From positions 270,001 to 302,000 of the forward strand of contig OY781039.1 in the NCBI GenBank assembly GCA_963676105.1: DNA of 32,000 nucleotides. The letters are read 5' to 3'. Positions 7,480 to 31,903 of the stretch are shown here, piece after piece. A model generated the notes under the pieces. The model saw only the letters and a list, made by a program, of their open reading frames with translations, was not told the origin of the DNA and did no database searches. The stretch comes from Erysipelotrichaceae bacterium. GTDB taxonomy: Bacteria > Bacillota_I > Bacilli_A > Erysipelotrichales > Erysipelotrichaceae. How positions within the stretch are numbered: position 1 is the stretch's first letter; the number at the start of each line of letters is the position of its first letter. The position numbers and the translations under genes are program-made.

Positions 7480-7488
7480 GGAGAACTC

Positions 7489-11984: not shown

Positions 11985-12012
11985 AAACGTTGAACTAAAT
12001 CAACGTTTTTTA
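11985..12012 (+). terminator. Rho-independent terminator
   Basis: 9-bp stem AAACGTTGA (11985..11993) pairs with TCAACGTTT (12000..12008), followed by a T-run. Confidence 0.8.
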
Positions 12013-12113
12013 CTTTTTACAATTGTCTATTAACTTGATATTATGTAGACGCTTAGAATGAAGGAATTGTTTGTGAAAAAACTTATGAAATATAGATTAA
12101 AGAAGAGCAATGT

Positions 12114-14880: not shown

Positions 14881-14897
14881 GAATAAGGACATGATTT

Positions 14898-14906
14898 TGT
14901 TATAAT
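14898..14906 (+). promoter_or_regulatory. Extended -10 promoter element TGtTATAAT for guaBA
   Basis: TG at 14898..14899 and TATAAT at 14901..14906, about 28 nt before ATG 14934. Confidence 0.5.
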
Positions 14907-14933
14907 CTAAAATAAAAAATGGAGGATGAACAC

Positions 14934-16064: not shown

Positions 16065-17589
16065 TACAATTTTAGTTCTAGACTTCGGGTCTCAATATAA
16101 TCAACTCATTGCACGTCGAATTCGTGAAATGGGTGTGTTCTCAGAATTACTTCCAAATGATGTAGATCTTAAAAAAGTGATCACACCAGATGTTAAAGGG
16201 ATTGTTTTTTCAGGTGGTCCTAACTCAGTTTATGATGATGGGGCGCTATCTGTAGATCCTGCAATCTATGAATTAGGTTTACCTATTTTAGGAATCTGTT
16301 ATGGGATGCAACTGATGACCTATCAATTACCAGGAGGAAAAGTAGAACCTGGAAAACTTAGAGAATATGGTCCTGCTGATATTCATGTTTTAAATGAAAC
16401 GCATTTATCTCATACGATGCCTTTAACCCAAAAGGTTTGGATGAGTCATGGTGATCATGTCGCATCTATTGCGGATGGCTTTAAAATTGATGCGAAAAGC
16501 AGTCATGACGTGATTGCGGTTATTTCTGATGAATCACGTAAATTTTATGGTTTACAATTCCATCCTGAAGTCAGAAATAGTGAATATGGTAATCAATGGT
16601 TATCAAACTTTGTTTTTGATGTATGTAAAGCAGAAGCAAACTGGAAATTGGAAGATTTCATTGAACAACAAGTTCAAGAAATTAGAAATACAGTTGGGAC
16701 TGATGAAGTTTTATGTGCACTATCAGGGGGTGTTGATTCATCTGTTGTCGCTGCTTTATTACACAAAGCGATTGGTCCACAACTCACTTGTATGTTTGTT
16801 GATCATGGTTTACTACGTTTAAATGAGCGAGGTATGGTTCGTGATATGTTTGAAGGTCACTTCAAACTTAATTTAGTGGTTGTTGATGCTGAAGAGCGTT
16901 TCTTAGGAAAACTCGAAGGTGTTGATGATCCTGAAAAGAAACGTAAAATTATTGGGACAGAATTCATTCGTGTCTTTGAAGAAGAAAGTTCTAAACTAAC
17001 GACTGTTAAATGGTTAGCTCAAGGGACTTTATATACAGACGTTATTGAGTCTGGCACAAAAACAGCTCAAACCATTAAATCTCACCACAATGTGGGTGGT
17101 CTACCAAAAGATATTCAATTTAAACTCATTGAACCACTTAATAAACTATTTAAAGATGAAGTTAGAGCTCTAGGATTACTTTTAGGCTTAAGTGAAGAAA
17201 TGGTTTATCGTCAACCTTTCCCAGGTCCTGGACTAGCGATTCGTATTATTGGTGAAGTCACAAAAGATAAATGTGATTTAGTCCGTTATTCTGATGCGAT
17301 TTTTCAAGAAGAAATCGTTAATGCTGGTTTACAACGTGATATATGGCAATACTTTACCGTTCTTACAAATATCAGATCTGTAGGGGTCATGGGTGATCAA
17401 AGAACTTATGATTATGCCTTGGGTTTAAGAGCTGTTTCATCTATTGATGGTATGACAGCTGATTACGCTAAAATTCCTTATGAAGTTTTAGATAAAGTAT
17501 CTAAACGTATTGTTAATGAAGTACGTGGTATTAATCGAATTATTTACGATATTACACCTAAACCTCCTGCCACAATTGAGTGGGAATAA
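16057..17589 (+). CDS. guaA: GMP synthase (glutamine-hydrolysing)
   Basis: [17 protein letters not shown], the PP-loop SGGVDSSV and a C-terminal ...PPATIEWE. I prefer the GTG at 16057 (AGGAGG at 16039..16044) because GuaA normally starts a few residues before ILVLDFG. It overlaps the guaB stop. Confidence 0.85.
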
Positions 17590-17594
17590 ACTAA

Positions 17595-18995
17595 ATGAAT
17601 TTTGCTAAACAACAATTAAATCAAAAACATCTGTTTATCGGCTTAATTGTTTTTAGTGTAAGTTATCTTCTTTTGCCAAATAATCTATTTACTTATGAAG
17701 CTAAGTTAGCTATGTCTAGCTTAGCTTTAATGATTTATTGGTGGATAACACGGCCTATTCATATTGCGGTAACAGCTTTATTGCCAATTGCCTTGAACAG
17801 TGTTTTTTCTTTTGCTAGCATGTCGAATATCCTTGCTAATTATTTTTCTCAAATTGTTGTGTTACTTCTTGGAGCAAATATATTAACGCTAGCTTGGAAG
17901 AAAACAGGTTTAGATAAACGAATAGCCTTAAAATCATTAAACTTAATTGGAACAAATGTTAAATATCAATTGATTGTATGGTTTATGTTATCAATTTTAT
18001 TATCAAGCGTATTACCCAATGCGGTTGTGGTAGCAGCATTGTCACCTATAGCATATTCAATGATGACATATCTAGATGAATCTTCAAGTAATCAATCGAT
18101 TCTTCATATGATATTGTTGATGATTGTTTGGGGCGCTGGTTTAGGTGGATTTGGTACACCGTTAGGTGGCGCAATGAATTTAGTTGCGATTACCCATATT
18201 GAAAATTATATTGGTAGAGAATTTATGTTTATTGATTGGGTTCTAACAATGGTCCCTTATATCTTTCTTTTGTCTGTAGGTTTCGTTTTATATATTCTAT
18301 TTCAAAAATATGAACAATCTAAGATAGAAGGAAGTCATGATTACTTCATTCAATCCTATAAAGCATTAGGGAAAATGAGTAAAGCTGAAGTTGTTTCGCT
18401 CGTCTTATTTACAATTCCTGTGATTTTGTCCTTTATACGACCTTTATATGCAAATTTATTGCCTGATTTTAAACCATTTTTTGCCTTTATGGTTTTCGCA
18501 TTATTTGCTTTTGTGATTAGTGATGATGAAAAAAATCTGATAATGACATGGGAGTATGCACAAAAGAATATCAACTGGGGACTAATGATTTTGTTTTCAG
18601 GTGGTTTGGCGATTGGTAATATTTTAATTGAAACAGGTGCCATTGAAAGTTTATCTACAATTATTCAGTTATTGAATTTAAAAAATATTAGTTTGATTAT
18701 TATAGTCATTTTGATTTTAGCTATGTTTTTAGCGAATGCGTCTAGCAATACGGCAGCGGTAGCTATTTCTGTACCTTTAGTGATAGGAATTATGAATTCT
18801 TTTGATCTAAATACATTGGGCTTTGTTTATATAGCAGTAGCCGCAAGTAATTGTGCTTTTTTATTTCCAACCTCAATTCGAGCTATTTCGATAGGTTTTG
18901 GAATTACACCTGATTATCTCTTTAAAAAGGGGGTAATTGGTGTGTTTATTAGTTTTATCATTTTGTTTACTTATGCTTTGTTTGTGATTAGTTAA
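17595..18995 (+). CDS. DASS/SLC13-family anion:cation symporter
   Basis: 466-aa polytopic ORF with WWITRPIHIAVTALLP and an SNT hairpin motif (ANASSNTAAVAI). It starts 6 nt after guaA. Confidence 0.65.
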   Translation: MNFAKQQLNQKHLFIGLIVFSVSYLLLPNNLFTYEAKLAMSSLALMIYWWITRPIHIAVTALLPIALNSVFSFASMSNILANYFSQIVVLLLGANILTLAWKKTGLDKRIALKSLNLIGTNVKYQLIVWFMLSILLSSVLPNAVVVAALSPIAYSMMTYLDESSSNQSILHMILLMIVWGAGLGGFGTPLGGAMNLVAITHIENYIGREFMFIDWVLTMVPYIFLLSVGFVLYILFQKYEQSKIEGSHDYFIQSYKALGKMSKAEVVSLVLFTIPVILSFIRPLYANLLPDFKPFFAFMVFALFAFVISDDEKNLIMTWEYAQKNINWGLMILFSGGLAIGNILIETGAIESLSTIIQLLNLKNISLIIIVILILAMFLANASSNTAAVAISVPLVIGIMNSFDLNTLGFVYIAVAASNCAFLFPTSIRAISIGFGITPDYLFKKGVIGVFISFIILFTYALFVIS

Positions 18996-19045
18996 TAAAT
19001 TTGTGTGTTAATAGCGTTTACTTTGTGAAAAATAGATTTAAAATT

Positions 19046-19073
19046 ACGTATTCTATCATAAATACGTTTTTTT
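19046..19073 (+). terminator. Rho-independent terminator (AT-rich stem)
   Basis: Stem ACGTATT (19046..19052) pairs with AATACGT (19061..19067), followed by a T-run. Confidence 0.55.
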
Positions 19074-19094
19074 ATAACAAATGTCAAAATTGCT

Positions 19095-19151
19095 TTGACA
19101 GGATTTTCACAATATGTTTAAATTAATGTATTAATTGTTAAAAGATTAACA
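19095..19151 (+). promoter_or_regulatory. Candidate promoter plus two abutting palindromes upstream of the sulfur/selenium operon
   Basis: TTGACA (19095..19100), a 17-nt spacer, then TTAAAT (19118..19123) preceded by TGt. Palindromes are AATTAAT-gt-ATTAATT (19121..19136) and TGTTAA-aaga-TTAACA (19136..19151). Confidence 0.4.
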
Positions 19152-19186
19152 TATTTGAACAAGTTATATTATAAGGGGAGTTCAGA

Positions 19187-19909
19187 ATGAGTGAAACAAC
19201 AACAAGAAGATCATCAAGAGCAGGCGGTCGAGCTCGTAAGAAAAAAATGAATCAAATTCCTATCGCATTAGGGGTTTTTCTTTTGATTACAGTCATCGCT
19301 ATTTATCTCACATTAAGAAATGAAACATTAGGGCTATTTTGGTTAATAGGTATTGCTTTTGGCTTTATCCTCCAAAGAGCTCGTTTTTGCTTTACCGCTT
19401 CAATGCGTGATCCATATTTAACAGGATCAACGACTGTAACACGTGCTGTGTTAATTGCGTTTGCGGTTAGTTCAATTGGTATTACAGCGATTAAATACGG
19501 ATACCTAATGAATGGTTTAACTGTTCCAGGATCAAGTTATATTGTGCCTATCTCTATTGCGACAGGTGTTGGTGCGTTTATGTTTGGTGTGGGTATGGTT
19601 ATAGCCGGTGGATGTGCATCAGGAACACTAATGCGAATTGGTGAAGGGTTCTGGATGCAATTACTATCATTATTTTTCTTTGTAGTCGGCTCACTATGGG
19701 GCGCACATGATTTTGGATGGTGGTATAGAAACTTCATGGTAAGTGGTAAACGTGTCTTCTTACCTGATTACTTTACGAATTTATTTAATTCAACTGCTTT
19801 TGGTTGGTTTGTTGGATTGCTTACAAATTTATTAATTATCTTAGGATTATATATTGCAGCTCACAAATGGGAAAATCGCAAAAAAGATCCAGATATGGAA
19901 AGTCATTAA
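19187..19909 (+). CDS. YedE/YeeE-family (Sulf_transp) membrane protein corresponding to the C-terminal half of E. coli YedE
   Basis: 240-aa ORF with LQRARFCFTASMRD and AGGCASGTLMRIGEG, and a basic N-terminal tail. GGGGAG SD is present. Confidence 0.8.
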   Translation: MSETTTRRSSRAGGRARKKKMNQIPIALGVFLLITVIAIYLTLRNETLGLFWLIGIAFGFILQRARFCFTASMRDPYLTGSTTVTRAVLIAFAVSSIGITAIKYGYLMNGLTVPGSSYIVPISIATGVGAFMFGVGMVIAGGCASGTLMRIGEGFWMQLLSLFFFVVGSLWGAHDFGWWYRNFMVSGKRVFLPDYFTNLFNSTAFGWFVGLLTNLLIILGLYIAAHKWENRKKDPDMESH

Positions 19910-19947
19910 ACATTTTTAAATAAGATACATAATGGAGGAACTTAAAA

Positions 19948-20175
19948 ATGGCTAAAGAAGTAGTATTAGATTGTCTAGGTGAGGCTTGTCCTGTACCGCT
20001 CGTAAAAGCAGAAAAAGCATTAGAAAAATTAGCATCTGGGGATGTGCTTATTGTGCAAATTGACCACAGTTGTGCGATGAAAAATGTACCTGAATGGGCA
20101 CGTAAACAAGGTCATGAAGTTGAACTTGAGGAAGTTGATGATGGCGAATGGGAATGCATCATCGAAAAGAAATAA
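19948..20175 (+). CDS. TusA/YedF/YeeD-family sulfur-carrier protein, copy 1
   Basis: 75-aa ORF with the CPxP motif (GEACPVPLV). GGAGGA SD lies 8 nt upstream. Confidence 0.85.
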   Translation: MAKEVVLDCLGEACPVPLVKAEKALEKLASGDVLIVQIDHSCAMKNVPEWARKQGHEVELEEVDDGEWECIIEKK

Positions 20176-20199
20176 TTTAGTTATCGGAGGAAATATAAA

Positions 20200-20427
20200 A
20201 TGGCTAAAGAAGTAGTATTAGATTGTCTAGGTGAGGCTTGTCCTGTACCGCTCGTAAAAGCAGAAAAAGCATTAGAAAAATTGGCATCTGGCGATGTACT
20301 TATCGTTCAAATTGATCATAGCTGCGCAATGAAAAATGTGCCTGAATGGGCACGTAAACAAGGTCACGAAGTTGAACTTGAAGAAGTTGATGATGGCGAA
20401 TGGGAATGCATTATTGAAAAGAAATAA
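20200..20427 (+). CDS. TusA/YedF/YeeD-family sulfur-carrier protein, copy 2 (protein identical to copy 1)
   Basis: 75-aa ORF with the same amino-acid sequence as copy 1 and 15 synonymous nucleotide differences. GGAGGA SD lies 8 nt upstream. Confidence 0.85.
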   Translation: MAKEVVLDCLGEACPVPLVKAEKALEKLASGDVLIVQIDHSCAMKNVPEWARKQGHEVELEEVDDGEWECIIEKK

Positions 20428-20454
20428 ACGTATACATTAAGTGGAGGAAATTTT

Positions 20455-21003
20455 ATGAAGAAGTTTTTTGACAACATTAAAAAGAATGAATTCTACCTAA
20501 TGTGGTTTAAAAATGCTTGGCCATATGTGACAGGTGGTGTCTTATTAGCACTATTTCAAATCGTTACATTTGCGACAACTGGTAACCCTTGGGGTGTATC
20601 TGGTGTCTTCGCTAACTGGGGAGCATGGTTATTTGAAGCTGTTGGTGGATCTGTTGATGAATGGTATTACTTTTCATCTCCAGGTGCTCAAGCTACTTTA
20701 ACAAACGGATTTTTAGATGACGCAGGTACATGGCGAAACTTAGGTATTATCTTTGGTGCTTTGTTCTCAACGTTAATCGCATCTGGATTTAAATTCAAAA
20801 AAATCAAATCTGTTCGTCAAGTTGTTGCGGCAGTCTTAGGTGGTTTATTAATGGGTTATGGTGCACGTATTGCTTATGGATGTAACATTGGTGCGCTATT
20901 CTCAGGGATTGCATCTCTATCATTATCTGGTTGGGTATTTGCAATCTTTATGTTTGCAGGCGCAGTTGTTGGTAGCAAACTATTAGTTAAGTATTTTATG
21001 TAA
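20455..21003 (+). CDS. YedE/YeeE-family (Sulf_transp) membrane protein corresponding to the N-terminal half of E. coli YedE
   Basis: 182-aa ORF with TGNPWGVSGVFANWG and GYGARIAYGCNIGALFSG..SLSGW. GGAGGA SD is present. Confidence 0.8.
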   Translation: MKKFFDNIKKNEFYLMWFKNAWPYVTGGVLLALFQIVTFATTGNPWGVSGVFANWGAWLFEAVGGSVDEWYYFSSPGAQATLTNGFLDDAGTWRNLGIIFGALFSTLIASGFKFKKIKSVRQVVAAVLGGLLMGYGARIAYGCNIGALFSGIASLSLSGWVFAIFMFAGAVVGSKLLVKYFM

Positions 21004-21013
21004 AGGAAAAATT

Positions 21014-22231
21014 ATGGCTAGAGAAAAAAAAGTAGAACAATATGATGTAGTTGTAGTAGGTGGTGGGGCTTCAGGTCTTACAGCCGGTATCTATTGTGGA
21101 CGCGCTAAACTAAAAACTTTAATTGTTGAACAAGCATTAGTTGGTGGCATCGCAACAAATACAAACGAAATTGAAAATTATCCTGGTTTCCCAGATGGTA
21201 TTTCAGGAATAGATCTTATGAATCTATTTAAAGATCAAGCAAAGAAATTTGGTTGTGACTTTAAATTAACAAACATTAAAACAGTCGATTTCTCATCAGA
21301 TGTAAAAATTTTAGAAACATTTAGAAATCGTTATGAAGCAAAAGCCGTTATTATTGCGAACGGTTCAAAACCTAGAGTACTAGGGATTGAATCAGAAGAA
21401 CAATATATTGGCAAAGGGATTGCGTTCTGTGCAACATGTGATGCAGCAGCAAATACTGGCAAAACAGTCGTCGTTGTTGGATCAGGAGATGCTGCTATTG
21501 AGGAAGGTATATTCCTAACTAAATTTGCTGATAAAGTTATTGTTTCAGTTTTACATGATGAAGGCATTATGGATTGTAATGAAATTGCGAAAGCAGCAGC
21601 TTTGGCAAATCCTAAAATGGAATTTAAATGGAATACAGTTGTTAATGAATATGTCGGTGGCGAAGAGCTAGATGGTGTTGTTCTTAAAAACGTTAAAACT
21701 GGCGATTTAGAAAGAGTTGATTGTGCAACTTGCTTCTTATTTATAGGTTATGTTCCTAATACAGCAATTTACGAAGGTGTCATAGATATGACAAGTCGTG
21801 GTTATATTCTAACTGACGAAGTAATGCGCACAAGTGCTCCTGGTGTATTTGCAGCAGGTGATGTTCGTGATAAATTCTTACGTCAAGTTGCGACATGTGT
21901 AGGTGATGCAGCCACAGCTGGTGTTATGGCTGAAAAATACATTGCTGAAAGTGAAATCTTTGAAGAACAAATCATGGTCGGTAATGGTGTTGCTTATGTG
22001 TTTGAAGCAATTGATGCAGATCAAAGAAACTTTTTATCTACTATTGAAAGCTTAGAAGAAAGTCATTCAGGTGTTGCATTCCATAAAGTGGATACTTATA
22101 AATCAAAAGGTTTAGCTGTACGTTTAGGTGTTAGTGAAATGCCTGCCGCAGTCATTATTAAAGAAGGCAAAATTTCTGAAACAATTTTAAAAGATAAATT
22201 AACTAAAGAAGCAATCGAAGAAGCACTTTAG
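21014..22231 (+). CDS. Thioredoxin-reductase-like FAD flavoprotein (CATC) fused to a Cys-less thioredoxin-fold domain
   Basis: 405-aa ORF with VVVGGGASGLTAG, CATCD, GSGDAAIEE and GVFAAGDV. The C-terminal ~95 aa show a Trx-like pattern (VAYVFEA...KVD...LGVSEMPAAVIIKEGK) with no cysteine. Confidence 0.8.
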   Translation: MAREKKVEQYDVVVVGGGASGLTAGIYCGRAKLKTLIVEQALVGGIATNTNEIENYPGFPDGISGIDLMNLFKDQAKKFGCDFKLTNIKTVDFSSDVKILETFRNRYEAKAVIIANGSKPRVLGIESEEQYIGKGIAFCATCDAAANTGKTVVVVGSGDAAIEEGIFLTKFADKVIVSVLHDEGIMDCNEIAKAAALANPKMEFKWNTVVNEYVGGEELDGVVLKNVKTGDLERVDCATCFLFIGYVPNTAIYEGVIDMTSRGYILTDEVMRTSAPGVFAAGDVRDKFLRQVATCVGDAATAGVMAEKYIAESEIFEEQIMVGNGVAYVFEAIDADQRNFLSTIESLEESHSGVAFHKVDTYKSKGLAVRLGVSEMPAAVIIKEGKISETILKDKLTKEAIEEAL

Positions 22232-22245
22232 GGAGGAGTACATTT

Positions 22246-23139
22246 ATGAAAAAAAGATTACTCATTATTCTAAGCGCTTTAATATTGTCGTCATTATCAG
22301 CATGTGCAAATTATGATTTTGGTGAAACTGGTCAATATATTGTTACTGCTGATGAAGTTGAATCACTTGTTGCTGATGGGGCTATTGTTGTAGATGCTCG
22401 TTCTGCTGAAGATTATTTAGTGGATCATTTAGCTGGTGCAATTAATATTCCTATGGGAGCACTTGTAGTAAATGAACCATATGCGAATATGCTGCCTGAA
22501 GCAGATCAAATTGAAATGGTTATGGGTGCAGCAGGTGTTAGTGAAAATGACACATTGCTTATTTATGACAACTCAAACAATATGTTAGCGGCACGTGTTC
22601 AATGGACACTAAATATGTATTCAAACTTTAATGTCAAAGTGATTAGTGGTGGTTATCAAGCACTTATTAATGAAGGGCTTGAAATGAATACGACAAACAC
22701 CACTTTACCTGAAACTGTTTATACTGCAGGTGAATATCAAAAGACACTAATTACTTCATTAGCTTATATCAATTCAACATTGAATATTCCTGATGAAAAT
22801 ATTGTCATTATTGATACAAGAAGTGCTGAAGAATACAATGCTGGAACAATTCCAGGTGTATTGCATAAAGAATATGTATGGACGATGTATGCAAACGGTG
22901 TTTATAAAACGGTTGATGACTTACAAAGTACCTATTTAGATGAAGGCTTAATGCCTGATACAAGAATCATTCTATTCTGCAAAACATCGGTTAGAGCAGC
23001 TCAAGTTTATACAGCTCTTAAAGATGCAGGATACACTGATGTACGGATATATGATGGAGCATGGTTAGAATACTCTGAACTTGGAGAAGTCTGGGTTCCA
23101 TCTTCAAATATCACACCAACGAAGCAAGACGCTTCATAG
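22246..23139 (+). CDS. Tandem-rhodanese (thiosulfate/3-mercaptopyruvate sulfurtransferase-like) lipoprotein
   Basis: Signal peptide with lipobox LSAC. The N-domain is inactive (IYDNSNN) and the C-domain has the active loop FCKTSVRAAQ. GGGAGGAG SD is present. Confidence 0.8.
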   Translation: MKKRLLIILSALILSSLSACANYDFGETGQYIVTADEVESLVADGAIVVDARSAEDYLVDHLAGAINIPMGALVVNEPYANMLPEADQIEMVMGAAGVSENDTLLIYDNSNNMLAARVQWTLNMYSNFNVKVISGGYQALINEGLEMNTTNTTLPETVYTAGEYQKTLITSLAYINSTLNIPDENIVIIDTRSAEEYNAGTIPGVLHKEYVWTMYANGVYKTVDDLQSTYLDEGLMPDTRIILFCKTSVRAAQVYTALKDAGYTDVRIYDGAWLEYSELGEVWVPSSNITPTKQDAS

Positions 23140-23149
23140 AGAGGGAAAA

Positions 23150-24031
23150 ATGAAAAAATTATTAGGTTTACTCGTAGCTACAATGATGGTATTCTCACTT
23201 ACTGCATGTAGCTCAGACACAGCTGCAGATGATACAACAGCTGGTGATGAAGTTACAGTGAATGCAGTAGAAGCTGCTGCAACTGCTTACTTTGCAGAAT
23301 TTGATGGCAACAATATCGTTGCTTGGGCAGATGTATTTGCGATGATCGATGCAGGGGATGCTCCTTATATCTTAAGTATCCGTTCAGCGGATGATTATGC
23401 TGCAGGTCATATCGAAGGTGCAGTTAATGCTGCTTGGGGTGCTGACTTAGCATCTAAAGTTGCTATGTTACCAACAGATCAACCGGTTTATGTTTACTGT
23501 TACTCAGGACAAACTGCTGGTCAAACAGTTGCATTATTAAATATGATGGGTGTTGAAGCATATTCAATTAAATCTGGATTTGTTAATGGCGCGATGACTA
23601 CTGAAGGTTACGAAGCATATGTTTCAACTGATGCTGTTGAAATGAGTGATGCTGGAGCTTCATTTGATGCAGATGTATTAGCTTTTGTTCAAGATTACTT
23701 CAATGCTATTCCTGAAGGTGGAAGTAATATCGTTGCTGCGACTGATGCTCAACCATTAATCGAAGCTGGTGACAAAGTTGTTATGGATATCAGATCAGCT
23801 GATGATTATGCTGCTGGTCATATCGAAGGTGCTATTAATGTTCCTTACGGTGCAGGTATGCAAGAAAACTTTGCTCAATTTGAAGGACAATCAATCGTTG
23901 TTACTTGTTACTCAGGACAAACAGCTGGTCAAACAGTTGCTATCCTACGTGCGCTTGGTTACGATGCTGTATCACTTAAGAGTGGTATGGGTGGTTGGAC
24001 TGGATCTGAACTACCTGTTGTTACTGAATAA
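23150..24031 (+). CDS. Lipoprotein with two catalytically competent rhodanese domains
   Basis: Start set at MKKLLGLLVATMMVFSLTAC (lipobox LTAC, SD GAGAGGGA) rather than the track start 23081. CYSGQTAGQT occurs in both domains. Confidence 0.8.
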   Translation: MKKLLGLLVATMMVFSLTACSSDTAADDTTAGDEVTVNAVEAAATAYFAEFDGNNIVAWADVFAMIDAGDAPYILSIRSADDYAAGHIEGAVNAAWGADLASKVAMLPTDQPVYVYCYSGQTAGQTVALLNMMGVEAYSIKSGFVNGAMTTEGYEAYVSTDAVEMSDAGASFDADVLAFVQDYFNAIPEGGSNIVAATDAQPLIEAGDKVVMDIRSADDYAAGHIEGAINVPYGAGMQENFAQFEGQSIVVTCYSGQTAGQTVAILRALGYDAVSLKSGMGGWTGSELPVVTE

Positions 24032-24060
24032 AATACAAATTATTTTATAGGAACTACATT

Positions 24061-24095
24061 AAATCCACGGCTTGATACCGTGGATTTATTTTGTT
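24061..24095 (+). terminator. Rho-independent terminator
   Basis: 10-bp stem AAATCCACGG (24061..24070) pairs with CCGTGGATTT (24078..24087), followed by a T-rich tail. Confidence 0.85.
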
Positions 24096-24122
24096 TAGAA
24101 GAAAAAAATAAAATATTGTGAA

Positions 24123-24131
24123 TGTTATAAT
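24123..24131 (+). promoter_or_regulatory. Extended -10 element TGtTATAAT for the glycosylation operon
   Basis: TG at 24123..24124 and TATAAT at 24126..24131, 12 nt before ATG 24144. This implies a very short leader. Confidence 0.45.
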
Positions 24132-24143
24132 ATTTGAGAATTT

Positions 24144-25670
24144 ATGAGAGAAAAAATAAAGAACTATAAAACAATATTAATCTTACTTAGCTTATATTTT
24201 TTATTGAGTATAAGTTTCTTAGATACTTTTCCTTTTATGCACTCTGATGAATCTTGGTTGTCTGGTTTAACAAGAGTGATGATACATACAGGTTTAAATT
24301 CAACTGAGACTTTCTTTGATTTAGTTCCTCGTTTTCCACATGCAATAAAATCATTATTTCATTTGATGCAAATGTTGTTTATTACAATGTTTTCTTATGA
24401 TTTATTCTCAGTTCGACTATTGTCGCTTGTATTTGCGATTGCATTTTTATTTGTTTTTTATAAGCTTTTGACGGATGTATTAAACAATAAAGTGTATGCA
24501 GTTGTATCAACTTTTATAATTGCCTTTGATATTCAATTTATTTATGCATCACATTTTGCTCGACAAGAGATTATTATCGGTTTTGGAATGATTCTAAGTC
24601 TTTATTATCTACAACACTTTATTAATAATTGGTCAATCAAGAATGATCTAATTCTAGGCTTAACGATAGGTGTGTTTATTGGTGTGCATCCCAATGCTTT
24701 TTTAATTGCTGTTGTTATGGGGAGTTTGTATCTATATTATCTGTTTGTTGAACAAAAACTTAAATTTAAGAACTTACTATTATTAGTTTTAACGGTCTTA
24801 ATTTTAGCCTTAATTTTTGTAGGAATTAGTTATCACTTTGATTCTCAATTTATAAACCATTATTTAAATTATGGTGATGATTTGGGGGTAAAACTAAGTT
24901 TAATTGAGAAAATAAAAAATATTATTCCTTTTTATCAAAAACTCTATTTAGGAATATCGGCAACCTACTTTACGCCTTGGATTCAATTTCAATTACTCTT
25001 ATTTGCTTTTTCTATTATTATTTCAATCAATTATGCGTATAAAGATAAGAAAATATTGAAATTTACTTTACCAATCGTATTTTTAAATCTTGGCTATATT
25101 TTTATTGGACGTTATTCTCAACCATCAATCTTGTTTATGTTTATATTATCTTATGAACTTGTATTCTATTTAATTTCAAAATTGAAGAAATTCGTTTTGA
25201 TTTTATTATCGATTTTATGTTTATCAACTTTGGGTTCTTCAATATTACAAATAAGTCATAAAATGAATAATGAGTATTCAAACTATATCCAAGAAATACA
25301 AACAATTATTCCGAGTGATGCTAATGTATTGGCTAATTTAAATACTGAGTTTGCTTTTGATTACAATCATTTATTTGATGTTCGTAATTTGGATTATTTA
25401 AGTGTAAATAATCTAAGCTTTGAGGACTATATTTTAAAGAATAATATCGAATATATTGTTTATGCTGAAGAAATGGATTTTATTTATCAAAGCCGTCCAG
25501 TTTGGAATATTGTTTATGGGAATCTTTATCCTTATTATGAAGATATGCAAGAATTTATAAGTAATGATTGCGATTTTGTTTATGAATTTTCATCATCTTA
25601 TGCAATGCGAATAGTTGAGTATACTGACGATAAAGAATGGCTTGTTAAAATATATAGGGTAGTGAAATGA
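24144..25670 (+). CDS. Polytopic GT-C-fold glycosyltransferase (GT39/GT83, ArnT/PMT-like) with a C-terminal extracytoplasmic domain
   Basis: 508-aa ORF with many TM segments. There is an acidic motif HSDESW after TM1 and a ~130-aa soluble C-terminus. The assignment rests on architecture and operon context, not on a search. Confidence 0.5.
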   Translation: MREKIKNYKTILILLSLYFLLSISFLDTFPFMHSDESWLSGLTRVMIHTGLNSTETFFDLVPRFPHAIKSLFHLMQMLFITMFSYDLFSVRLLSLVFAIAFLFVFYKLLTDVLNNKVYAVVSTFIIAFDIQFIYASHFARQEIIIGFGMILSLYYLQHFINNWSIKNDLILGLTIGVFIGVHPNAFLIAVVMGSLYLYYLFVEQKLKFKNLLLLVLTVLILALIFVGISYHFDSQFINHYLNYGDDLGVKLSLIEKIKNIIPFYQKLYLGISATYFTPWIQFQLLLFAFSIIISINYAYKDKKILKFTLPIVFLNLGYIFIGRYSQPSILFMFILSYELVFYLISKLKKFVLILLSILCLSTLGSSILQISHKMNNEYSNYIQEIQTIIPSDANVLANLNTEFAFDYNHLFDVRNLDYLSVNNLSFEDYILKNNIEYIVYAEEMDFIYQSRPVWNIVYGNLYPYYEDMQEFISNDCDFVYEFSSSYAMRIVEYTDDKEWLVKIYRVVK

Positions 25671-26752
25671 TGATAAAGTTTAAAGAAAGTAATTATATCA
25701 AAGAAGATTTAAATATTCTGGAGAATGCTTTGCTGAATGATATGGACTATATCAGCACAGTAAAAGAGAAATTATCTACGGATTATGGGGAACATATCTT
25801 TTTATGCGCTAATGCATCGCTTGCTCTAGATATGCTTTTTTTAGCCTATGATTTTAAAAAAGGATCAGAAGTTATTATTCCTTCTTATACTTACCCTTCT
25901 GCTTTAAATACCATCTTACGCTTTGGTTGTGTACCTGTCTTATGTGATATCGATGAAACAACTTGTGTTATAGATGTTGAACATGCAAAAGCTTTGAAAA
26001 CTGATAAAACGGTTTGCATTATCCCCACTCATTATGGTGGAGTATCCTGTGATATGGATCAGTTAAAAGAAGAGTTTAGCGATATTAAAATTATTGAAGA
26101 TGCAGCTTTGTCTTTTGGCGCAAGCTATAAAGGAAAAGCTTTAGGTTCTTTAGCAGATGCATCCGTATTATCTTTTCACAGAACGAAGAACATCTCATGC
26201 GAAGAGGGTGGAGCGATTGTTTTGAATGATGTTTCAATCATAGACAAAGTACATTTAATTTTTGACAATGGTACAAATCGTGAGGCTTTTATAAAGCATG
26301 AAGTAAAATCGTATTCATGGCAAAAAATTGGATTTAACGCAAAAATGAATAATTTATCTGCAGCTTTACTCAGTACTCAATTAGATAAACTCGAAACAAT
26401 AACGCATAAACAAAGGTCTTTGTTTGATACGTATTATAAAGCATTAAAACCAATTGAGTCTAAAGGCTTTAAATGTCCAACTATTCCTGTTTATAATCAA
26501 AATAATTATCATATCTTTTATCTAGTATTTAAGAACGAAGAATTAAAAAATAAAGTACAAGATCATCTAAATGCACAAGGGATAGAAGCAGTCATTCATT
26601 ATGTTCCTCTTCATCAAAATCTAGATGTTCAATCTTTAGATTATCCAAATACTAATCATGTTGCGAATTGCTTATTACGACTACCTATGCATACAAAAAT
26701 GAGTAAAGAGGATTGTTTGTTTATCGTACAAGAAATTGAGTTGTGTTTATGA
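25667..26752 (+). CDS. DegT/DnrJ/EryC1-family sugar aminotransferase, WecE-like (dTDP-4-amino-4,6-dideoxyhexose type)
   Basis: SFHRTKNISCEEGGAIVLND (PLP Lys), DNGTNRE, NYHIFYL and IHYVPLH parallel E. coli WecE as I recall it. ATGA overlap with the upstream gene. Confidence 0.85.
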   Translation: MMIKFKESNYIKEDLNILENALLNDMDYISTVKEKLSTDYGEHIFLCANASLALDMLFLAYDFKKGSEVIIPSYTYPSALNTILRFGCVPVLCDIDETTCVIDVEHAKALKTDKTVCIIPTHYGGVSCDMDQLKEEFSDIKIIEDAALSFGASYKGKALGSLADASVLSFHRTKNISCEEGGAIVLNDVSIIDKVHLIFDNGTNREAFIKHEVKSYSWQKIGFNAKMNNLSAALLSTQLDKLETITHKQRSLFDTYYKALKPIESKGFKCPTIPVYNQNNYHIFYLVFKNEELKNKVQDHLNAQGIEAVIHYVPLHQNLDVQSLDYPNTNHVANCLLRLPMHTKMSKEDCLFIVQEIELCL

Positions 26753-27459
26753 TTCAAGAGACGATATCGGTTGTCGTTCCAGTGTACAATGCTTCCAAAA
26801 CACTAGAAAAAATCATTGATAAACTTGTTGATGTTCTAAGTAGGTTTAAGGATTATGAAATTATTTTAGTGGATGATTGTAGTATAGATAATAGTTTTCA
26901 ATGTTTAAAAAAATTGAAAAAACAATACTCAAAACTGAAAGTATTGAAACTTAAAGAGAATAGTGGCCAACAGTGCGCAATTTTGTGTGGTTTATCTTAT
27001 TCAACAAAAGATGTCATCTGTATTATTGATGATGATCTGGATCAAAATCCAAGCGATATTTTAAGACTTTATGAGAGCTTAAGTCAGGGATTTGATGTAG
27101 TGTATGGAATAACGGATTATAAAACTGTTAAAAGTTTTGGATCTATAATGAGAGATCTATTATTTAATACCATCACAAACATTCCTAAAGGAATAAAAGT
27201 TTCGGCGTTTCGAATCATGAAAAATGAGATTAAAGAAAAAATTATTCAAGCTGATACTTCTTTTGTTTATATTTCGATGGAAATCCTAAAATATACCCAA
27301 AATATTGGGAATATTAGAGTAGAAACAAATAAAGTAAGTGAAAGTAACTATACTTTCACTAAGCTTTTAAATTTATATAAAAATATTATATTTACTTATG
27401 CATTGCATTTAAATCGTAGTAGCGGTAAATCTTGTTATGAAGTGGAGAATATTATATGA
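26749..27459 (+). CDS. GT2 glycosyltransferase of the polyprenyl-phosphate (ArnC/DPM1/GtrB) type, without C-terminal TM helices
   Basis: VVVPVYNAS, VDDCSIDNS and DDDLDQNPSDI (compare DADLQ(N/H)PP). ATG 26749 gives an ATGA overlap with the upstream stop. The track start 26743 is a GTG. Confidence 0.75.
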   Translation: MIQETISVVVPVYNASKTLEKIIDKLVDVLSRFKDYEIILVDDCSIDNSFQCLKKLKKQYSKLKVLKLKENSGQQCAILCGLSYSTKDVICIIDDDLDQNPSDILRLYESLSQGFDVVYGITDYKTVKSFGSIMRDLLFNTITNIPKGIKVSAFRIMKNEIKEKIIQADTSFVYISMEILKYTQNIGNIRVETNKVSESNYTFTKLLNLYKNIIFTYALHLNRSSGKSCYEVENII

Positions 27460-28727
27460 AGATTATGGTTTTAGGCGGTGGAAACTGCCAAATAAATTTA
27501 ATAAAAAGATTAAAAGATAAAGGCGATGAAATTATCCTAATTGATTATCTGTCTAATTGTTTAGGTAAATCAGTCTGCAATAAACATTATCAAATATCAA
27601 CGTTTGATACGCCAAAAGTTTTAGAAATTGCAAAAACCGAAAAGATCGATGCTATTGTAACTTTAGGAACTGATCAACCGATTTATACGGCGGCTGTCGT
27701 CGCAAAAGAATGCGGTTTACCATTTTACTTAAATCCTGAAGAAGCTTTATCAGTGACCAATAAAAGAGTGATGAAAAAGATGTTTAAAGAGTATTCGATT
27801 CCATCAGCAAATTATGTCCTAATTTCAGAAAGTTTCAAGGACGAAGAAGTAAACAAATTAAAGTTTCCTTGTGTTTTAAAGCCAGTTGATTCACAAGGTC
27901 AAAGAGGAATATATAAACTCAATTCAATCGCTGAAATTCGAGCGGTTATTAAAGATACTTTGAGTTATTCACGTGAAGATAAAGTCTTACTTGAAGAATA
28001 CTATGATAGCGACGAAATAACTGTTAATGGTTGGATAACAAATGGTAAACTAACACTTTTATCAGTGGTGGATCGAGTAACACTACAGGAAAATCAACAT
28101 ATTGGAATTTGTATAGCCCATAATTTTCCATCTCAACATTTGAAGCGTTATTATCAAGATATTGAGAATTTAACTCAAAAAGTTATTCAGAGTTTTAATC
28201 TAACAAATGGACCTGTCTATTTTCAATATTTGATTGGGGAAAAGGGACTTCAAATTAATGAAATTGCGATGCGGATTGGTGGAGCTTATGAAGATATAAC
28301 CTTACCACTTATTACTGGGATAGATGTCTTGGATGTCTTAATTCAATCTATAAAAGGTAATAAAATAGATGCCTCAAAGTTTGATGCTTACCAGCTTAGT
28401 CAAAATCAAGTCTATCTTTCAACGCAAATGTTCTTTTTAAATAAAGGCTGTATCACAAACATTTTTTATGATCAAGATTCATTAAGTAAAGCACGCATCA
28501 GTCATTTAAATATTGCACGTCATATTGGTGATCAAATTAGGGACATCCAAAATGCGACAGCTAGAGCAGGTTACTTTTTAGTACAGGCGAACACAGTTTC
28601 TGAACTTAAGTTAAATATTCAAAGAGCTTATCAGAATGTAAAAATAATGGATGATAAAAAAAGTAATTTAATAAAAAATTACTTTGATTATCAAGATCGT
28701 TATAAATATGCTCCAACCGATTTATAA
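27456..28727 (+). CDS. ATP-grasp carboxylate-amine ligase
   Basis: 423-aa ORF with MVLGGG, VLKPVDSQGQRGI, LLEEYY and NEIAMRIGGA. ATGA overlap with the GT2 gene. Confidence 0.75.
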   Translation: MKIMVLGGGNCQINLIKRLKDKGDEIILIDYLSNCLGKSVCNKHYQISTFDTPKVLEIAKTEKIDAIVTLGTDQPIYTAAVVAKECGLPFYLNPEEALSVTNKRVMKKMFKEYSIPSANYVLISESFKDEEVNKLKFPCVLKPVDSQGQRGIYKLNSIAEIRAVIKDTLSYSREDKVLLEEYYDSDEITVNGWITNGKLTLLSVVDRVTLQENQHIGICIAHNFPSQHLKRYYQDIENLTQKVIQSFNLTNGPVYFQYLIGEKGLQINEIAMRIGGAYEDITLPLITGIDVLDVLIQSIKGNKIDASKFDAYQLSQNQVYLSTQMFFLNKGCITNIFYDQDSLSKARISHLNIARHIGDQIRDIQNATARAGYFLVQANTVSELKLNIQRAYQNVKIMDDKKSNLIKNYFDYQDRYKYAPTDL

Positions 28728-30335
28728 GCCTTCGTTGGTATCACGTTTTAGATAGCCGATATAGGCAAGGACAATTAAAACTACACTAAGACATAATGTT
28801 GTATAAAAGACAGTCATATTAAAAGATTCGACTGGAACACGACTAATCCAATTAAAGATAGCTGTTTGTTCAAGAATTTTAGGTAAATCTAAGATTTCTT
28901 TAAAGTAATACATAAAGAAAGAATAGGTTAAATAGACATAGACAGTATTACGTGCTTTGGGAAGATATGCAATAAAGAGACAAGACAGAGCTAAAAAGAA
29001 AAACATAGCTGGCATAAAATTAAAGCTTGCTTGCATAAAATCGTTTAATGTCATTACAGTCGTGCTATTCATCACAGTTAGCGCTGTTAAACCTAAACTT
29101 AAAGCACTTAATAGAATACTGATTAGAATTGCGAGTGTTGCTAAAGATAAATTAGTGCCAAAAAGCTTAAATCGACTTATTTTATGGGTTGAATAAAGCT
29201 GGCTAAGATGCATTCTTTCTTCTTGAAGATAGAGTTTATTCATGATGTTTATAGGAAGAATTGCTACAGTAACCATGATAAACATAACCATAACGGAGGT
29301 AAAAGATGCTTCTAGCGAACTACCACTATAAAGAAAGAATGATTTTAAAATATCATTACCTTCTAAAAAGGTTTGCATATTACCATAAATAGAACCAAAA
29401 GTTACACCTAAAATAATATAGGTGCTAAACCAGGTGATTATCGATCCTTTATTCAGCCGCCAAAAGATACCAATCACGCTCATCAGTGATTTTTTAGCGT
29501 TTGCACGTCCCTCATAGGCAAAAAGATATCCTGCGCCTAAATCACGTTTAAGTTCTAAAGTAGAAGCGACAAACCATAAAATAATACTTAACAAAACGAG
29601 ATATAGGATGGGTATAAGATCATTGTTTGAAAAGGGATAGGAAAGATAAGTCCATGCGATTGGATTGTAAGAAGTTAAAGCGTGATAAGATACATCACTG
29701 AGTGCACGACCTAGATAAAATAGGCCAATCAAAGCTAAACTCATCCCATTTGCGCCAGCCGCTGTTTCATTGATTTGAGCCATCACTAAAGCAATTAGAG
29801 CACCAAAAACGCCTGCTACCCCGATCGACAGAGATAAAAGAAAAGACCCCCATAAATCAATTGATTCGACTTTGAAACTTATCATCGCAAAAGTATTGAT
29901 TAGAACAAATAAAGTTTGAATGAAAATAGTTTCTAAAATGATCGCAAAAGAATTAGCTAATCTTCCTACTTTAGTGGAACGGATTAACTCGCTTAAACCA
30001 TTTGCTTCATCTTTTCTTGTATGTGATACCACATGTAAGATAGAAATAACCATCGCAATGATAGCCATGAACAACAACATTTCATGCGTAAACATGGCAC
30101 CAATGGTATATTCACTGGCTTGTACTGGTGTAGGACCAACTAAGGCAATCATGGCTGGATTCTGCATGATTTCAAATTCACCAATTAAGGCTTGACCTGC
30201 GCCTAATTTATCAAAGGCTGGGACAAAACCAGCGGTTAATAAAACTAAAGAGATGACCCAAAAAACAATTTTTTTCCAATCTCTTTTGAGATGAATAAGT
30301 AAGAGTAGTGGGAAACGGTAAACTTCTTTAAACAT
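28722..30335 (-). CDS. ABC transporter permease (large ABC-2-like, ~12 TM)
   Basis: 537-aa hydrophobic ORF starting 11 nt downstream of the ATPase gene. GGAGA SD is present. Confidence 0.75.
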   Translation of the reverse strand: MFKEVYRFPLLLLIHLKRDWKKIVFWVISLVLLTAGFVPAFDKLGAGQALIGEFEIMQNPAMIALVGPTPVQASEYTIGAMFTHEMLLFMAIIAMVISILHVVSHTRKDEANGLSELIRSTKVGRLANSFAIILETIFIQTLFVLINTFAMISFKVESIDLWGSFLLSLSIGVAGVFGALIALVMAQINETAAGANGMSLALIGLFYLGRALSDVSYHALTSYNPIAWTYLSYPFSNNDLIPILYLVLLSIILWFVASTLELKRDLGAGYLFAYEGRANAKKSLMSVIGIFWRLNKGSIITWFSTYIILGVTFGSIYGNMQTFLEGNDILKSFFLYSGSSLEASFTSVMVMFIMVTVAILPINIMNKLYLQEERMHLSQLYSTHKISRFKLFGTNLSLATLAILISILLSALSLGLTALTVMNSTTVMTLNDFMQASFNFMPAMFFFLALSCLFIAYLPKARNTVYVYLTYSFFMYYFKEILDLPKILEQTAIFNWISRVPVESFNMTVFYTTLCLSVVLIVLAYIGYLKRDTNEGL

Positions 30336-30346
30336 AGTATTCTCCT

Positions 30347-31225
30347 TTACTCTTCATAATGACGTCTAAATAAATCTTCTAAGGTAGGTGGTGTTAGTTC
30401 GAATTTTTTAACATCCAAACGTGAAACTTTTTTAAGGAGTTCTTTCATTTCGCTGTTGTCGATGTAGAAACTCGCTTTATCATCAGTGAGTGTAAAATCA
30501 TGAACACCTGCTAAACGTTCAATTCTCTCTAACTTATTCGCAATTAAAGTTACCGATGTACGGGTTAAGTGACGAAGTTCATCTAGGGTACCTGTTTCAA
30601 CAATTTTACCTTGGCGAATAATGACAACCCGATCAGCTAAACGTTCTACTTCACTTAAGATATGGGAAGATAATAGTATTGCTTTTCCTTGCGCTTTGAG
30701 TTTATCGACTTCTTCTTGAAAGATTGATTCCATCAGTGGATCAAGTCCAGAGGTGGGTTCATCAAAAATATAGAGATCAGCATCAACACTTAATGCAGAT
30801 ATCAATGCGACTTTTTGGCGGTTTCCTTTGGAATAGGTTTTTGCTTTTTTCTTAGGATCTAAATCAAAACGTTTGATAAGTTCATCTCTTTTTTCGCTAT
30901 TTCCATTGCCGTGGAGTTTCATAAAAATGTCAATGAGTTCACCCCCACTAAATCCTCCCCAGAAATTGACTTCGCCAGGTATATAAGAAATTTTTGTATG
31001 GATGTCTAGGCTATCTATCCAGGTATCTTTACCGAAGATAGTGGCATAACCAGCATCTTTTTTAAGAATTCCTAGTAAGATTCGGATTGTGGTAGATTTA
31101 CCTGCCCCATTAGGACCAATAAAACCTAAAACTTCACCTTCGTTCACAGTAAAACTAACATCATGTAAAGCCTTGAACTTACCAAAACTTTTTTGAAGAT
31201 GTTGAATATCTACAATTATTGACAT
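30347..31225 (-). CDS. ABC transporter ATP-binding protein
   Basis: Walker A GPNGAGKST, signature-like YSKGNRQK, Walker B LYIFDEPTSGLD and H-loop SSHIL. AGGAG SD is present. Confidence 0.9.
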   Translation of the reverse strand: MSIIVDIQHLQKSFGKFKALHDVSFTVNEGEVLGFIGPNGAGKSTTIRILLGILKKDAGYATIFGKDTWIDSLDIHTKISYIPGEVNFWGGFSGGELIDIFMKLHGNGNSEKRDELIKRFDLDPKKKAKTYSKGNRQKVALISALSVDADLYIFDEPTSGLDPLMESIFQEEVDKLKAQGKAILLSSHILSEVERLADRVVIIRQGKIVETGTLDELRHLTRTSVTLIANKLERIERLAGVHDFTLTDDKASFYIDNSEMKELLKKVSRLDVKKFELTPPTLEDLFRRHYEE

Positions 31226-31241
31226 AACGACTCCTTTGATT

Positions 31242-31288
31242 AATAGATTAATCTATTTAATGGTAAAACGCTCTATCTATGATGTCAA
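31242..31288 (-). promoter_or_regulatory. Promoter (TTGACA-17-TACCAT) with a 16-bp perfect palindrome over the predicted start site of the ABC operon
   Basis: On the minus strand, -35 is the complement of 31283..31288 and -10 is the complement of 31260..31265. The palindrome AATAGATTAATCTATT is at 31242..31257, between the -10 box and the SD. Confidence 0.5.
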
Positions 31289-31441
31289 TTTTAACGAGTA
31301 ACTTGAAACATTTATTTCAAATCATTCAAATCATTGTATTTCATTTTTGAATGTGAATTAAAACAATAATCATATTAAAAGGAATTTTAAGACATTTAAC
31401 GTATACTTGAAGCATATCTTTTAGATTTGAATGAGGTGCAT

Positions 31442-31903
31442 ATGGATCATCGTTACTTTGATTACTTATTAGAATTTAATGGAACACGGGATTATTATAA
31501 ATGCCATGATTTTTTAGAGGAGTGGTGGTATGAAATTAATCATCCTAAAGATCATATCTTAGTCGCTTTTATTCAGCTTGCTGTGGGCATGTTTCAATGG
31601 CGCAGAGGAAATATCAATGGCGCAAATAAAATGTTCGAAGGTGCATATTTTATTTTTGAAGCGCATAAAGATGAAATTATTGATTACGGTATTGATGAGG
31701 AAAAACTTTTTGAGATTATTACCCGAGTTCATAAATCAATGCTCTATCATGAAGACTTCTATGATGTCAATCTTCCGCTCATTGATAAAACTATGTTATC
31801 AAAACTTGAAACATTAGCTTCTGATAGGGATTTACGTCTCTATCAAGCTTCCAATTTAGACGATTATCATTTAGTTCATAAACACCTTAAACGGATTAGC
31901 TAG
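31442..31903 (+). CDS. DUF309-like protein
   Basis: YYKCHDFLEEWW resembles the DUF309 core (xxEAHEVLEExW). ATG 31442 follows GAGGTG. The track start 31427 is a TTG. Confidence 0.6.
   Translation: MDHRYFDYLLEFNGTRDYYKCHDFLEEWWYEINHPKDHILVAFIQLAVGMFQWRRGNINGANKMFEGAYFIFEAHKDEIIDYGIDEEKLFEIITRVHKSMLYHEDFYDVNLPLIDKTMLSKLETLASDRDLRLYQASNLDDYHLVHKHLKRIS

Follow-up and report, generated by a model that had tools for sequence, protein, structure and literature searches.

Known lipid-carrier glycosylation systems such as CsbB-YfhO, GtrABV, GacI-GacL and Arn have glycopolymers or lipids as their acceptors, and polyprenyl-phosphate glycosyltransferases of family 2 (GT2) that lack a transmembrane (TM) segment are known, for example, PpgS and human DPM1. 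In addition, ATP-grasp enzymes can form esters and can amidate glucuronate, as in the Campylobacter capsule, and PurD joins glycine to a sugar amine. Here, we analysed a 32,000-nucleotide stretch of an Erysipelotrichaceae bacterium (contig OY781039.1, positions 270,001 to 302,000; the whole stretch is called the window), which carries a cassette of four genes for a GT-C glycosyltransferase, a sugar aminotransferase, a GT2 and an ATP-grasp ligase. We consider the chance somewhat better than even that this cassette is an Arn-like polyprenyl-phosphate sugar pathway with an added ATP-dependent acylation, and that it decorates an extracytoplasmic partner of the sulfur module encoded next to it. In the literature, we found no paper on this cassette or on its association with rhodanese and YeeE genes, and this includes the papers on Halanaerobium rhodaneses.

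The open reading frame (ORF) listing gives four ORFs that run in the same direction on the plus strand from 24144 to 28727:

24144-25670, plus strand: GT-C membrane glycosyltransferase, 508 amino acids (aa)
25667-26752, plus strand: WecE-like DegT-family sugar aminotransferase dependent on pyridoxal phosphate (PLP), 361 aa
26749-27459, plus strand: ArnC/GtrB/DPM1-type GT2, 236 aa from the ATG (238 aa from a GTG at 26743)
27456-28727, plus strand: ATP-grasp carboxylate-amine ligase, similar to L-amino-acid ligases and PurD/PurT, 423 aa

An earlier note on this DNA, made from the letters alone, had described three ATGA start/stop overlaps joining the four genes. Inspection of the sequence found them at 25667-25670, 26749-26752 and 27456-27459. 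The second overlap needs the GT2 to start at the ATG at 26749, and the alternative GTG at 26743 is in frame.

To place the cassette among other genomes, GTDB was scanned with one genome per species. The scan gave 193 relatives of the ATP-grasp ligase, and the best 80 loci were kept for synteny counts; neighbouring ORFs were clustered and scanned with NCBIfam, and some gene counts refer to the 49 loci of at least 19 kb (long loci). Most carriers of the ATP-grasp gene are anaerobes from the Clostridia and Halanaerobiales, and a smaller number belong to the Anaerolineales or Calditrichales. Carriers that can be cultivated include Halanaerobium congolense, H. saccharolyticum, Clostridium homopropionicum DSM 5847, Geosporobacter ferrireducens IRF9, Maledivibacter halophilus and Sporosalibacterium faouarense, and the nearest species representatives to the window ligase are metagenome-assembled genomes of Christensenellaceae (59-65% identity). 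We found that the ATP-grasp gene adjoins the GT2 gene in 71 of the 80 loci and that the aminotransferase gene adjoins it in 69, while a GT-C gene is present in 68. The GT-C gene lies upstream on the same strand in Christensenellales-like genomes and Anaerolineales, and elsewhere about 2.5 kb downstream on the opposite strand. Furthermore, in 52 loci the genes of an ABC (ATP-binding cassette) importer of the SsuA family (binding lipoprotein, permease and ATPase) come after the ATP-grasp gene. The order aminotransferase, GT2, ATP-grasp is thus kept in about 70 of the 80 loci, the GT-C gene being close by, and synteny in about 70 genomes means that the arrangement is not due to chance. Lack of synteny in other genomes, which the earlier note had named as a refutation, is therefore not observed.

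The first ORF is a GT-C enzyme, as the earlier note had proposed, and the refuting case that the note had named, a failure to match GT-C families, does not apply. Its AlphaFold (AF2) model (pLDDT 90, pTM 0.90) was searched against the PDB with Foldseek, and the top 38 matches were all GT-C enzymes, including STT3/PglB/AglB, ALG12, ArnT (5F15, TMq 0.57), ALG9, DPY19, Emb and PMT. At the level of profiles, the matches to Pfam PMT_2 (22.5 bits, gathering cutoff 26.1) and PMT (19.7 bits, cutoff 22.7) were both below cutoff, and no NCBIfam model matched. Most of its homologues have precomputed PMT_2 or PMT matches, and NCBI names them 'ArnT family' or 'GT39'. The protein spans the membrane with about 11-13 TM helices and ends in an extracytoplasmic alpha/beta domain. 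Its first outer loop, right after TM1, reads FPFMHSDESW, in which H33-S34-D35-E36-x-W38 is invariant in 25 homologues; this motif stands where the catalytic acid of GT-C enzymes usually sits. Co-occurrence with the ArnC-like GT2 suggests that the enzyme takes a polyprenyl-phosphate-linked sugar donor. One homologue that looked like a fusion of GT-C and aminotransferase (P0182) was rejected as a frameshift artefact, with junk in place of the conserved GT-C C-terminus.

The second protein matched Pfam DegT_DnrJ_EryC1 (PF01041) with an E value of 2.5e-72 (244.5 bits, cutoff 19.8). The NCBIfam models for WecE (306.7 bits, cutoff 375) and ArnB (162 bits, cutoff 631) both scored below cutoff, WecE being the better of the two. 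In addition, the nearest PDB entries are the WecE structures 6BLG and 4PIW, and the PLP-lysine motif SFHRTKN aligns with SFHETKN of these structures, so that the pattern SFHxTKN is kept and the WecE-like nature noticed earlier is borne out. By analogy, the substrate is probably dTDP-4-keto-6-deoxyglucose. RmlB is encoded in 19 and RmlA in 8 of the 49 long loci, directly upstream of the aminotransferase where the order is clear. RmlB of the relatives scored 424 bits, above the NCBIfam cutoff of 365, and the neighbouring gene is only RmlA-like. This adjacency supports dTDP-4-keto-6-deoxyglucose as the substrate and dTDP-4-amino-4,6-dideoxyhexose as the product, which is the sugar that the earlier note had predicted.

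The third protein matched Pfam Glycos_transf_2 (5.5e-28) and contains the motif DDDLDQNPSDI. Its closest solved relatives are ArnC (9HWJ, 6e-20), GtrB (5EKP, 1.6e-16) and the dolichyl-phosphate mannose synthase DPMS (5MLZ, 4e-14), in keeping with the ArnC/DPM1 type first assigned to it. The alignment with ArnC spans residues 8-225, with DDDLDQNP facing DADLQNPP, and takes in the stretch that precedes the TM hairpin; by analogy, the protein may transfer a sugar to polyprenyl phosphate. The hairpin itself is absent, as had been noticed before: the protein has no hydrophobic 19-mer and ends about 22 aa past the position of ArnC residue 225, where the hairpin begins. In NCBIfam, the ArnC equivalog gave 88 bits against a cutoff of 529, PgfS was the second-best match, and PpgS matched weakly. 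Since the scores are below every NCBIfam equivalog cutoff, substrate assignments are made by analogy. These low scores and the lack of a TM segment would also agree with a pathway in which the aminotransferase, the ligase and the GT2 make a small compound that stays in the cytoplasm (for example, a metabolite carrying a sugar or an aminoacyl group, or a thiol of low molecular weight) and the GT-C uses another donor. We regard such soluble products as very improbable, because the alignment covers the pre-hairpin region of ArnC, because PpgS and DPM1 also work without a TM segment, and because GT2, ATP-grasp and GT-C persistently co-occur and flippase-type EamA genes are found in relatives.

The fourth protein is an ATP-grasp ligase, by both profile and fold, and the earlier identification stands. 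It matched Pfam ATP-grasp_4 (1.9e-14, 54 bits, cutoff 27), and LAL_C2 scored 27.8 on the window ligase (cutoff 29.4) and above cutoff on homologues, for example, 53.9 on P0270. The fold nearest to its AF2 model (pLDDT 92) is 4DIM, itself uncharacterised, followed by the L-amino-acid ligases 3VOT, 3WNZ and 4WD3 (BL00235, YwfE/BacD and RizA) and then PurT, PurK and PurD. Analogy with these enzymes suggests that the ligase may amidate the sugar amine. The further statement that it has no counterpart in Arn is arguable, since N-acylation after transamination is the role of the ArnA formyltransferase domain and of WecD; here the step would use ATP and a free acid.

The ligase is coupled to the GT2. 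A profile search of 1.84 billion cluster representatives (50% identity) gave 2205 ATP-grasp relatives at E <= 1e-30, and among the best 150 of these, 21 are fusions of an N-terminal GT2 and a C-terminal ATP-grasp domain (645-985 aa). All 21 were confirmed by BLAST against the window GT2, and 8 of the 21 by Pfam, plus P0118 by its precomputed Pfam domains. This recurrent fusion suggests that both enzymes act on the same or consecutive substrates. In loci L165, L167 and L168, one or two small EamA genes of the ArnE/F type overlap the start of the fused gene, which fits flipping of a lipid-linked sugar and would fill the missing flippase slot in distant relatives. Such genes occur only by these three fused homologues and are absent from the window and the close loci.

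Several single homologues have unusual structures. P0304 has two tandem ATP-grasp domains, and the profile hits both P0308 and P0347 at two places along the protein, which hints at two successive ligations in some systems. P0255 appears to be a fusion of an N-terminal ATP-grasp domain with a C-terminal SsuA-type binding protein; the topology is odd, and the fusion may have arisen from wrong gene calling. In P0309 (L166, 10601-11686), a linker of about 360 aa with GGNHEGGRTAP-like repeats stands between the GT2 and the ATP-grasp domain. We considered whether this middle region of 362 aa is a hidden aminotransferase and rejected the idea, as it is a low-complexity GGNHEGGRTAP linker with no Pfam or PDB match. 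Locus L165, the most distant EamA and fusion case examined, has an undecaprenyl-diphosphatase gene (BacA, 1515-2309) about 6 kb upstream, and its 12.8-kb contig has no GT-C and no sulfur genes. The ATP-grasp gene of L014 is a paralogue that has no cassette around it, and its neighbourhood is uninformative.

It is also conceivable that the ligase does not act on the sugar amine. It could esterify a hydroxyl, amidate a sugar carboxylate or ligate a small molecule imported by the SsuA-type transporter, and the aminotransferase would then be accessory. Such a role would agree with L166 and L169, which have the fused GT2-ATP-grasp gene and a full sulfur supercluster and no aminotransferase, with the importer that follows the ATP-grasp gene in 52 loci, and with the esters and the glucuronate amide formed by other ATP-grasp enzymes. 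Three observations speak for the amine and make this alternative distinctly unlikely in our view. In the window, as in 69 of the 80 loci, the GT2 gene comes directly after the aminotransferase gene; the closest solved relatives of the ligase (L-amino-acid ligases, PurD and PurT) join a carboxylate and an amine; and the substrate of ArnC, which is nearest to the GT2 among solved structures, is a 4-amino sugar with an N-acyl group.

The earlier note had missed the context of the cassette, which is not a free-standing envelope operon. The cassette is part of a conserved supercluster that also has YeeE, TusA, a thioredoxin-reductase-like enzyme and rhodanese lipoproteins and begins just upstream. 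The features of this region, including two signals between the gene sets, are as follows:

17595-18995: transporter of the CitMHS / Na:sulfate-symporter family, directly upstream of the YeeE genes
19187-19909, plus strand: N-terminal half of YeeE/YedE (Sulf_transp, PF04143)
19948-20175 and 20200-20427, plus strand: TusA/YeeD-like tandem pair, identical 75-aa ORFs with a 252-bp period and a CPxP motif
20455-21003, plus strand: C-terminal half of YeeE/YedE (Sulf_transp)
21014-22231, plus strand: thioredoxin-reductase-like flavoprotein with a C-terminal thioredoxin-fold domain
22246-23139, plus strand: rhodanese lipoprotein R1, two-domain TST/MST-like fold, lipobox LSAC, loop CKTSVRA
23150-24031, plus strand: rhodanese lipoprotein R2, two GlpE/PspE-like domains, each with a CYSGQTA loop, lipobox LTAC
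24060-24088, plus strand: terminator-like hairpin and T-run, 11-bp stem with 5 GC pairs, tail TTTTGTTT
24123-24131, plus strand: extended -10-like motif TGnTATAAT, TGTTATAAT, just 3' of the hairpin and 12 nucleotides before the GT-C ATG

The two YeeE halves matched Sulf_transp with 105 and 120 bits (cutoff 27). Among the 49 long loci, rhodanese genes occur in 48, LysR genes in 43 and the YeeE halves in 38-39. The GT-C gene directly adjoins a rhodanese gene in 52 of 68 loci. The linkage is also seen from the other side: in a reverse metagenome search seeded with R1, 12 of the 13 loci having about 10 kb on both sides contained both GT-C and ATP-grasp. Furthermore, the fused-gene lineages L163, L166 and L169 show the same sulfur supercluster, and its order and orientation vary among Bacillota, Anaerolineales and Calditrichales while its membership is kept. 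In many loci, a LysR gene and the SsuA-type ABC importer lie inside the gene string of the cassette.

These data bear on whether the cassette serves a generic envelope decoration. It could place an N-acyl or aminoacyl amino sugar on a teichoic acid, lipoglycan or glycolipid, for instance, to change the surface charge as 4-amino-4-deoxyarabinose (Ara4N) or D-alanylation does, and its adjacency to the sulfur genes would then stem from shared regulation or genomic-island inheritance only. The linkage in both search directions, through rearrangement across several phyla and in the fused-gene lineages, is hard to reconcile with this, and so are the position of the GT-C gene beside the rhodanese genes (52/68 loci) and the LysR and importer genes within the cassette's gene string. 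We therefore hold generic decoration to be rather unlikely, although its logic matches CsbB-YfhO, GtrABV, GacI-GacL and Arn, the terminator splits the gene sets in the window, the GC content of the cassette (0.29) is lower than that of the sulfur module (0.37), and a few R1 loci have no cassette nearby.

Other features of the sulfur region deserve mention. The CitMHS-type transporter may be another sulfur-anion transporter. The tandem TusA pair lies between the YeeE halves, and several related loci have two or three TusA genes. A flavoprotein resembling coenzyme A (CoA)-disulfide reductase with a C-terminal rhodanese domain (persulfide-reductase type) is encoded in L020 (19435-21132) and in 11 other loci, about one-fifth of the long loci. 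A selenium function was also considered. The LysR of the relatives is nearest to the 'selenium-metabolism LysR' model, with 200 bits, below the cutoff of 250, and the 2015 YedE/YedF paper gives no matching cluster; the module may handle sulfur or selenium. The ABC genes of the relatives match SaoA, SaoP and SaoX of the SAO selenoprotein ABC system below cutoff and are not the same system, and rhodaneses, glycosyltransferases and ATP-grasp enzymes do not appear in the SAO paper. In addition, R1 and R2 weakly match NCBIfam NF045521 'rhoda_near_glyco' (rhodanese homology domain protein), a name which suggests that curators saw rhodanese-glycosyltransferase adjacency in another family, on which we found no publication.

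The C-terminus of R1 (window 23095-23139) consists of a variable P/S/T-rich linker followed by an invariant D-x-S-COOH end. This tail was found in 79 of 79 complete R1 orthologues in the metagenome loci and in 52 of 52 R1-type ORFs in the GTDB loci, and it is confined to R1 among the protein families of the loci. It may be a modification or recognition site. The lipoboxes of R1 and R2 place both proteins outside the membrane, where the active site of the GT-C also lies. Because the cassette is genomically locked to the sulfur module and the GT-C gene is usually beside the rhodanese genes, we place the acceptor or partner within this module for the transfer of sulfur (or selenium). The rhodanese lipoproteins are its single most likely acceptor, for example, at the P/S/T-rich tail of R1, with a chance that we put well short of even.

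The pathway that we favour, Arn-like glycosylation with ATP-dependent acylation for the sulfur module, could run as follows. RmlA and RmlB, whose genes would be elsewhere in this genome and lie within the cluster in relatives, would make dTDP-4-keto-6-deoxyglucose, and the WecE-like aminotransferase would convert it to dTDP-4-amino-4,6-dideoxyhexose. The ATP-grasp ligase would turn a free carboxylic acid into an acyl phosphate and amidate the 4-amine of the sugar with it; the acid is most likely an amino acid, and the chemistry would be similar to that of PurD. The TM-less GT2, in complex with the ligase (in other lineages fused to it), would load the sugar on polyprenyl phosphate. The lipid-linked sugar would then be flipped, and the GT-C would move the sugar to the extracytoplasmic acceptor.

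The analysis shows the identities of the genes, the folds, the synteny, the gene fusions and the co-occurrence; each chemical step, the nature of the acyl group, the acceptor and the physiological role are inferred from these. Several points weigh against this pathway. The window proteins score below all equivalog cutoffs (ArnC 88 against 529, WecE 307 against 375). There is no rmlA, rmlB or flippase gene within the 32-kb window, in line with the earlier remark that a 4,6-dehydratase, a nucleotidyltransferase and a flippase are missing, and the window also has no LysR gene and no SsuABC-like transporter. Between the sulfur genes and the cassette stands the terminator at 24060-24088, which marks the end of the rhodanese operon upstream, so the two gene sets may be transcribed separately. 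Five R1 loci (L110, L119, L124, L155 and L159) have no cassette within 10 kb. In L166 and L169, no aminotransferase gene lies within 10 kb of an otherwise full supercluster; there, the amino sugar would have another origin, or else the ATP-grasp would need no sugar amine. Finally, the case for the rhodaneses as acceptor consists of gene adjacency and the conserved tail.

A more speculative version would give the sugar itself a role in sulfur chemistry. The pathway might build an extracytoplasmic, sugar-borne thiol cofactor, in which cysteine or another thiol or sulfur acid is ligated to the 4-amino sugar in the manner of mycothiol or bacillithiol. The GT-C would attach this Cys-aminosugar to the D-x-S tail end of R1 as a swinging arm, or to a membrane lipid, and the arm would take sulfane sulfur (or selenium) from the surface rhodaneses and pass it to YeeE/TusA import. 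We think this improbable; if true, sulfur would be carried outside the cytoplasm on a prosthetic group made of glycan.

With regard to expression of the cassette, the extended -10 box described in the earlier note is a real motif at 24123-24131, and TGnTATAAT is no commoner in the window than chance predicts (4 found against 3.6 expected), so only its placement argues for a promoter. A generic sigma-70 scan of the window was likewise at background (37 found against 32.5 expected). If the motif is used, its distance of 12 nucleotides from the ATG means a very short leader or a leaderless mRNA. At 24123-24146, this sole promoter-like motif ends 12 nucleotides 5' of the GT-C start and a clear Shine-Dalgarno sequence is absent; the cassette may be translated from a leaderless or near-leaderless mRNA. 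Rfam gave no matches in the window. The GC content is 29.1% in the cassette, 37.2% in the adjacent sulfur module and 33.2% in the whole window, and the low value of the cassette may reflect the composition bias of membrane or AT-rich genes, or separate acquisition. At the other end, the 3' end of the ATP-grasp gene overlaps by 6 bp (28722-28727) the 3' end of a convergent gene for a 537-aa membrane protein, which has no Pfam match and is paired with a DrrA-like ABC ATPase (30347-31225). This pair lies outside the conserved supercluster.

If the favoured pathway is right, the cassette would represent a widespread and unstudied family of lipid-carrier glycosylation, with ATP-grasp relatives in at least 193 species-level genomes, and a new ATP-driven tailoring route for lipid-linked sugars. 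Two of its features would be unprecedented: an ATP-grasp ligase coupled, and often fused, to a polyprenyl-phosphate glycosyltransferase, and a genomic link to surface rhodaneses and thiosulfate uptake that looks obligate. The cassette would also be a candidate for the missing extracytoplasmic partner or acceptor of the rhodaneses in thiosulfate-reducing anaerobes such as Halanaerobium, which sours and corrodes shale wells.

Compared with known sulfur systems, the upstream module resembles YeeE/YeeD (TsuA/TsuB) and the cst-like clusters of rhodanese and CoA-persulfide reductase in its split YeeE, its TusA-like proteins, its rhodaneses and, in some loci, the CoA-disulfide-reductase-rhodanese protein. 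To our knowledge, the described versions of these include neither glycosylation genes nor rhodanese lipoproteins that lie outside the cytoplasm and end in D-x-S. The two-step systems CsbB-YfhO, GtrA/B/V, GacI-GacL, PgfS-PgfM and PpgS-Rv3779 share with the proposed pathway a GT2 that makes a polyprenyl-phosphate monosaccharide and a GT-C that transfers it to a surface acceptor. However, they use ordinary UDP-sugars and have no dedicated tailoring by an aminotransferase and an ATP-grasp ligase, and we know of none that is linked to rhodanese or YeeE genes.

Meanwhile, WecE/WecD, which make Fuc4NAc of the enterobacterial common antigen, and VioA/VioB share with the proposed pathway the feeding of a WecE-like transamination by RmlA and RmlB and the N-acylation that follows. 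In those systems, however, acetyl-CoA is the acyl donor for a transferase of the GNAT or LbH type, and the sugar is built into a Wzx/Wzy repeat unit instead of passing by way of a polyprenyl-phosphate monosaccharide to a GT-C. The L-amino-acid ligases (YwfE/BacD, RizA and BL00235) and PurD/PurT resemble the window ligase in fold, in LAL_C2 (below cutoff on the window ligase itself) and, as predicted for it, in the joining of a carboxylate and an amine through an acyl phosphate. However, the identity is only 13-18%, and recurrent fusion to GT2 is not a feature of those families.

Arn (PmrHFIJKLM), the lipid A 4-amino-arabinose pathway, resembles the proposed pathway in having an aminotransferase, a GT2 that puts an N-acylated 4-amino sugar on undecaprenyl phosphate and a GT-C on the outer side, and ArnE/F-type EamA genes occur in distant relatives of the cassette. 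ArnA and ArnD were not detected in Pfam scans of the window ORFs at 16021-31903 (positions 1-16000 lay outside the scan), and neither recurs in the related loci. In addition, lipid A cannot serve as the acceptor throughout, since many hosts of the cassette are monoderm. Unlike Arn, the cassette has an aminotransferase of the WecE rather than the ArnB type, a GT2 without the TM hairpin and a linkage to sulfur genes, and its proposed acylation would join a free acid by means of an ATP-grasp ligase where Arn uses formyl-tetrahydrofolate.

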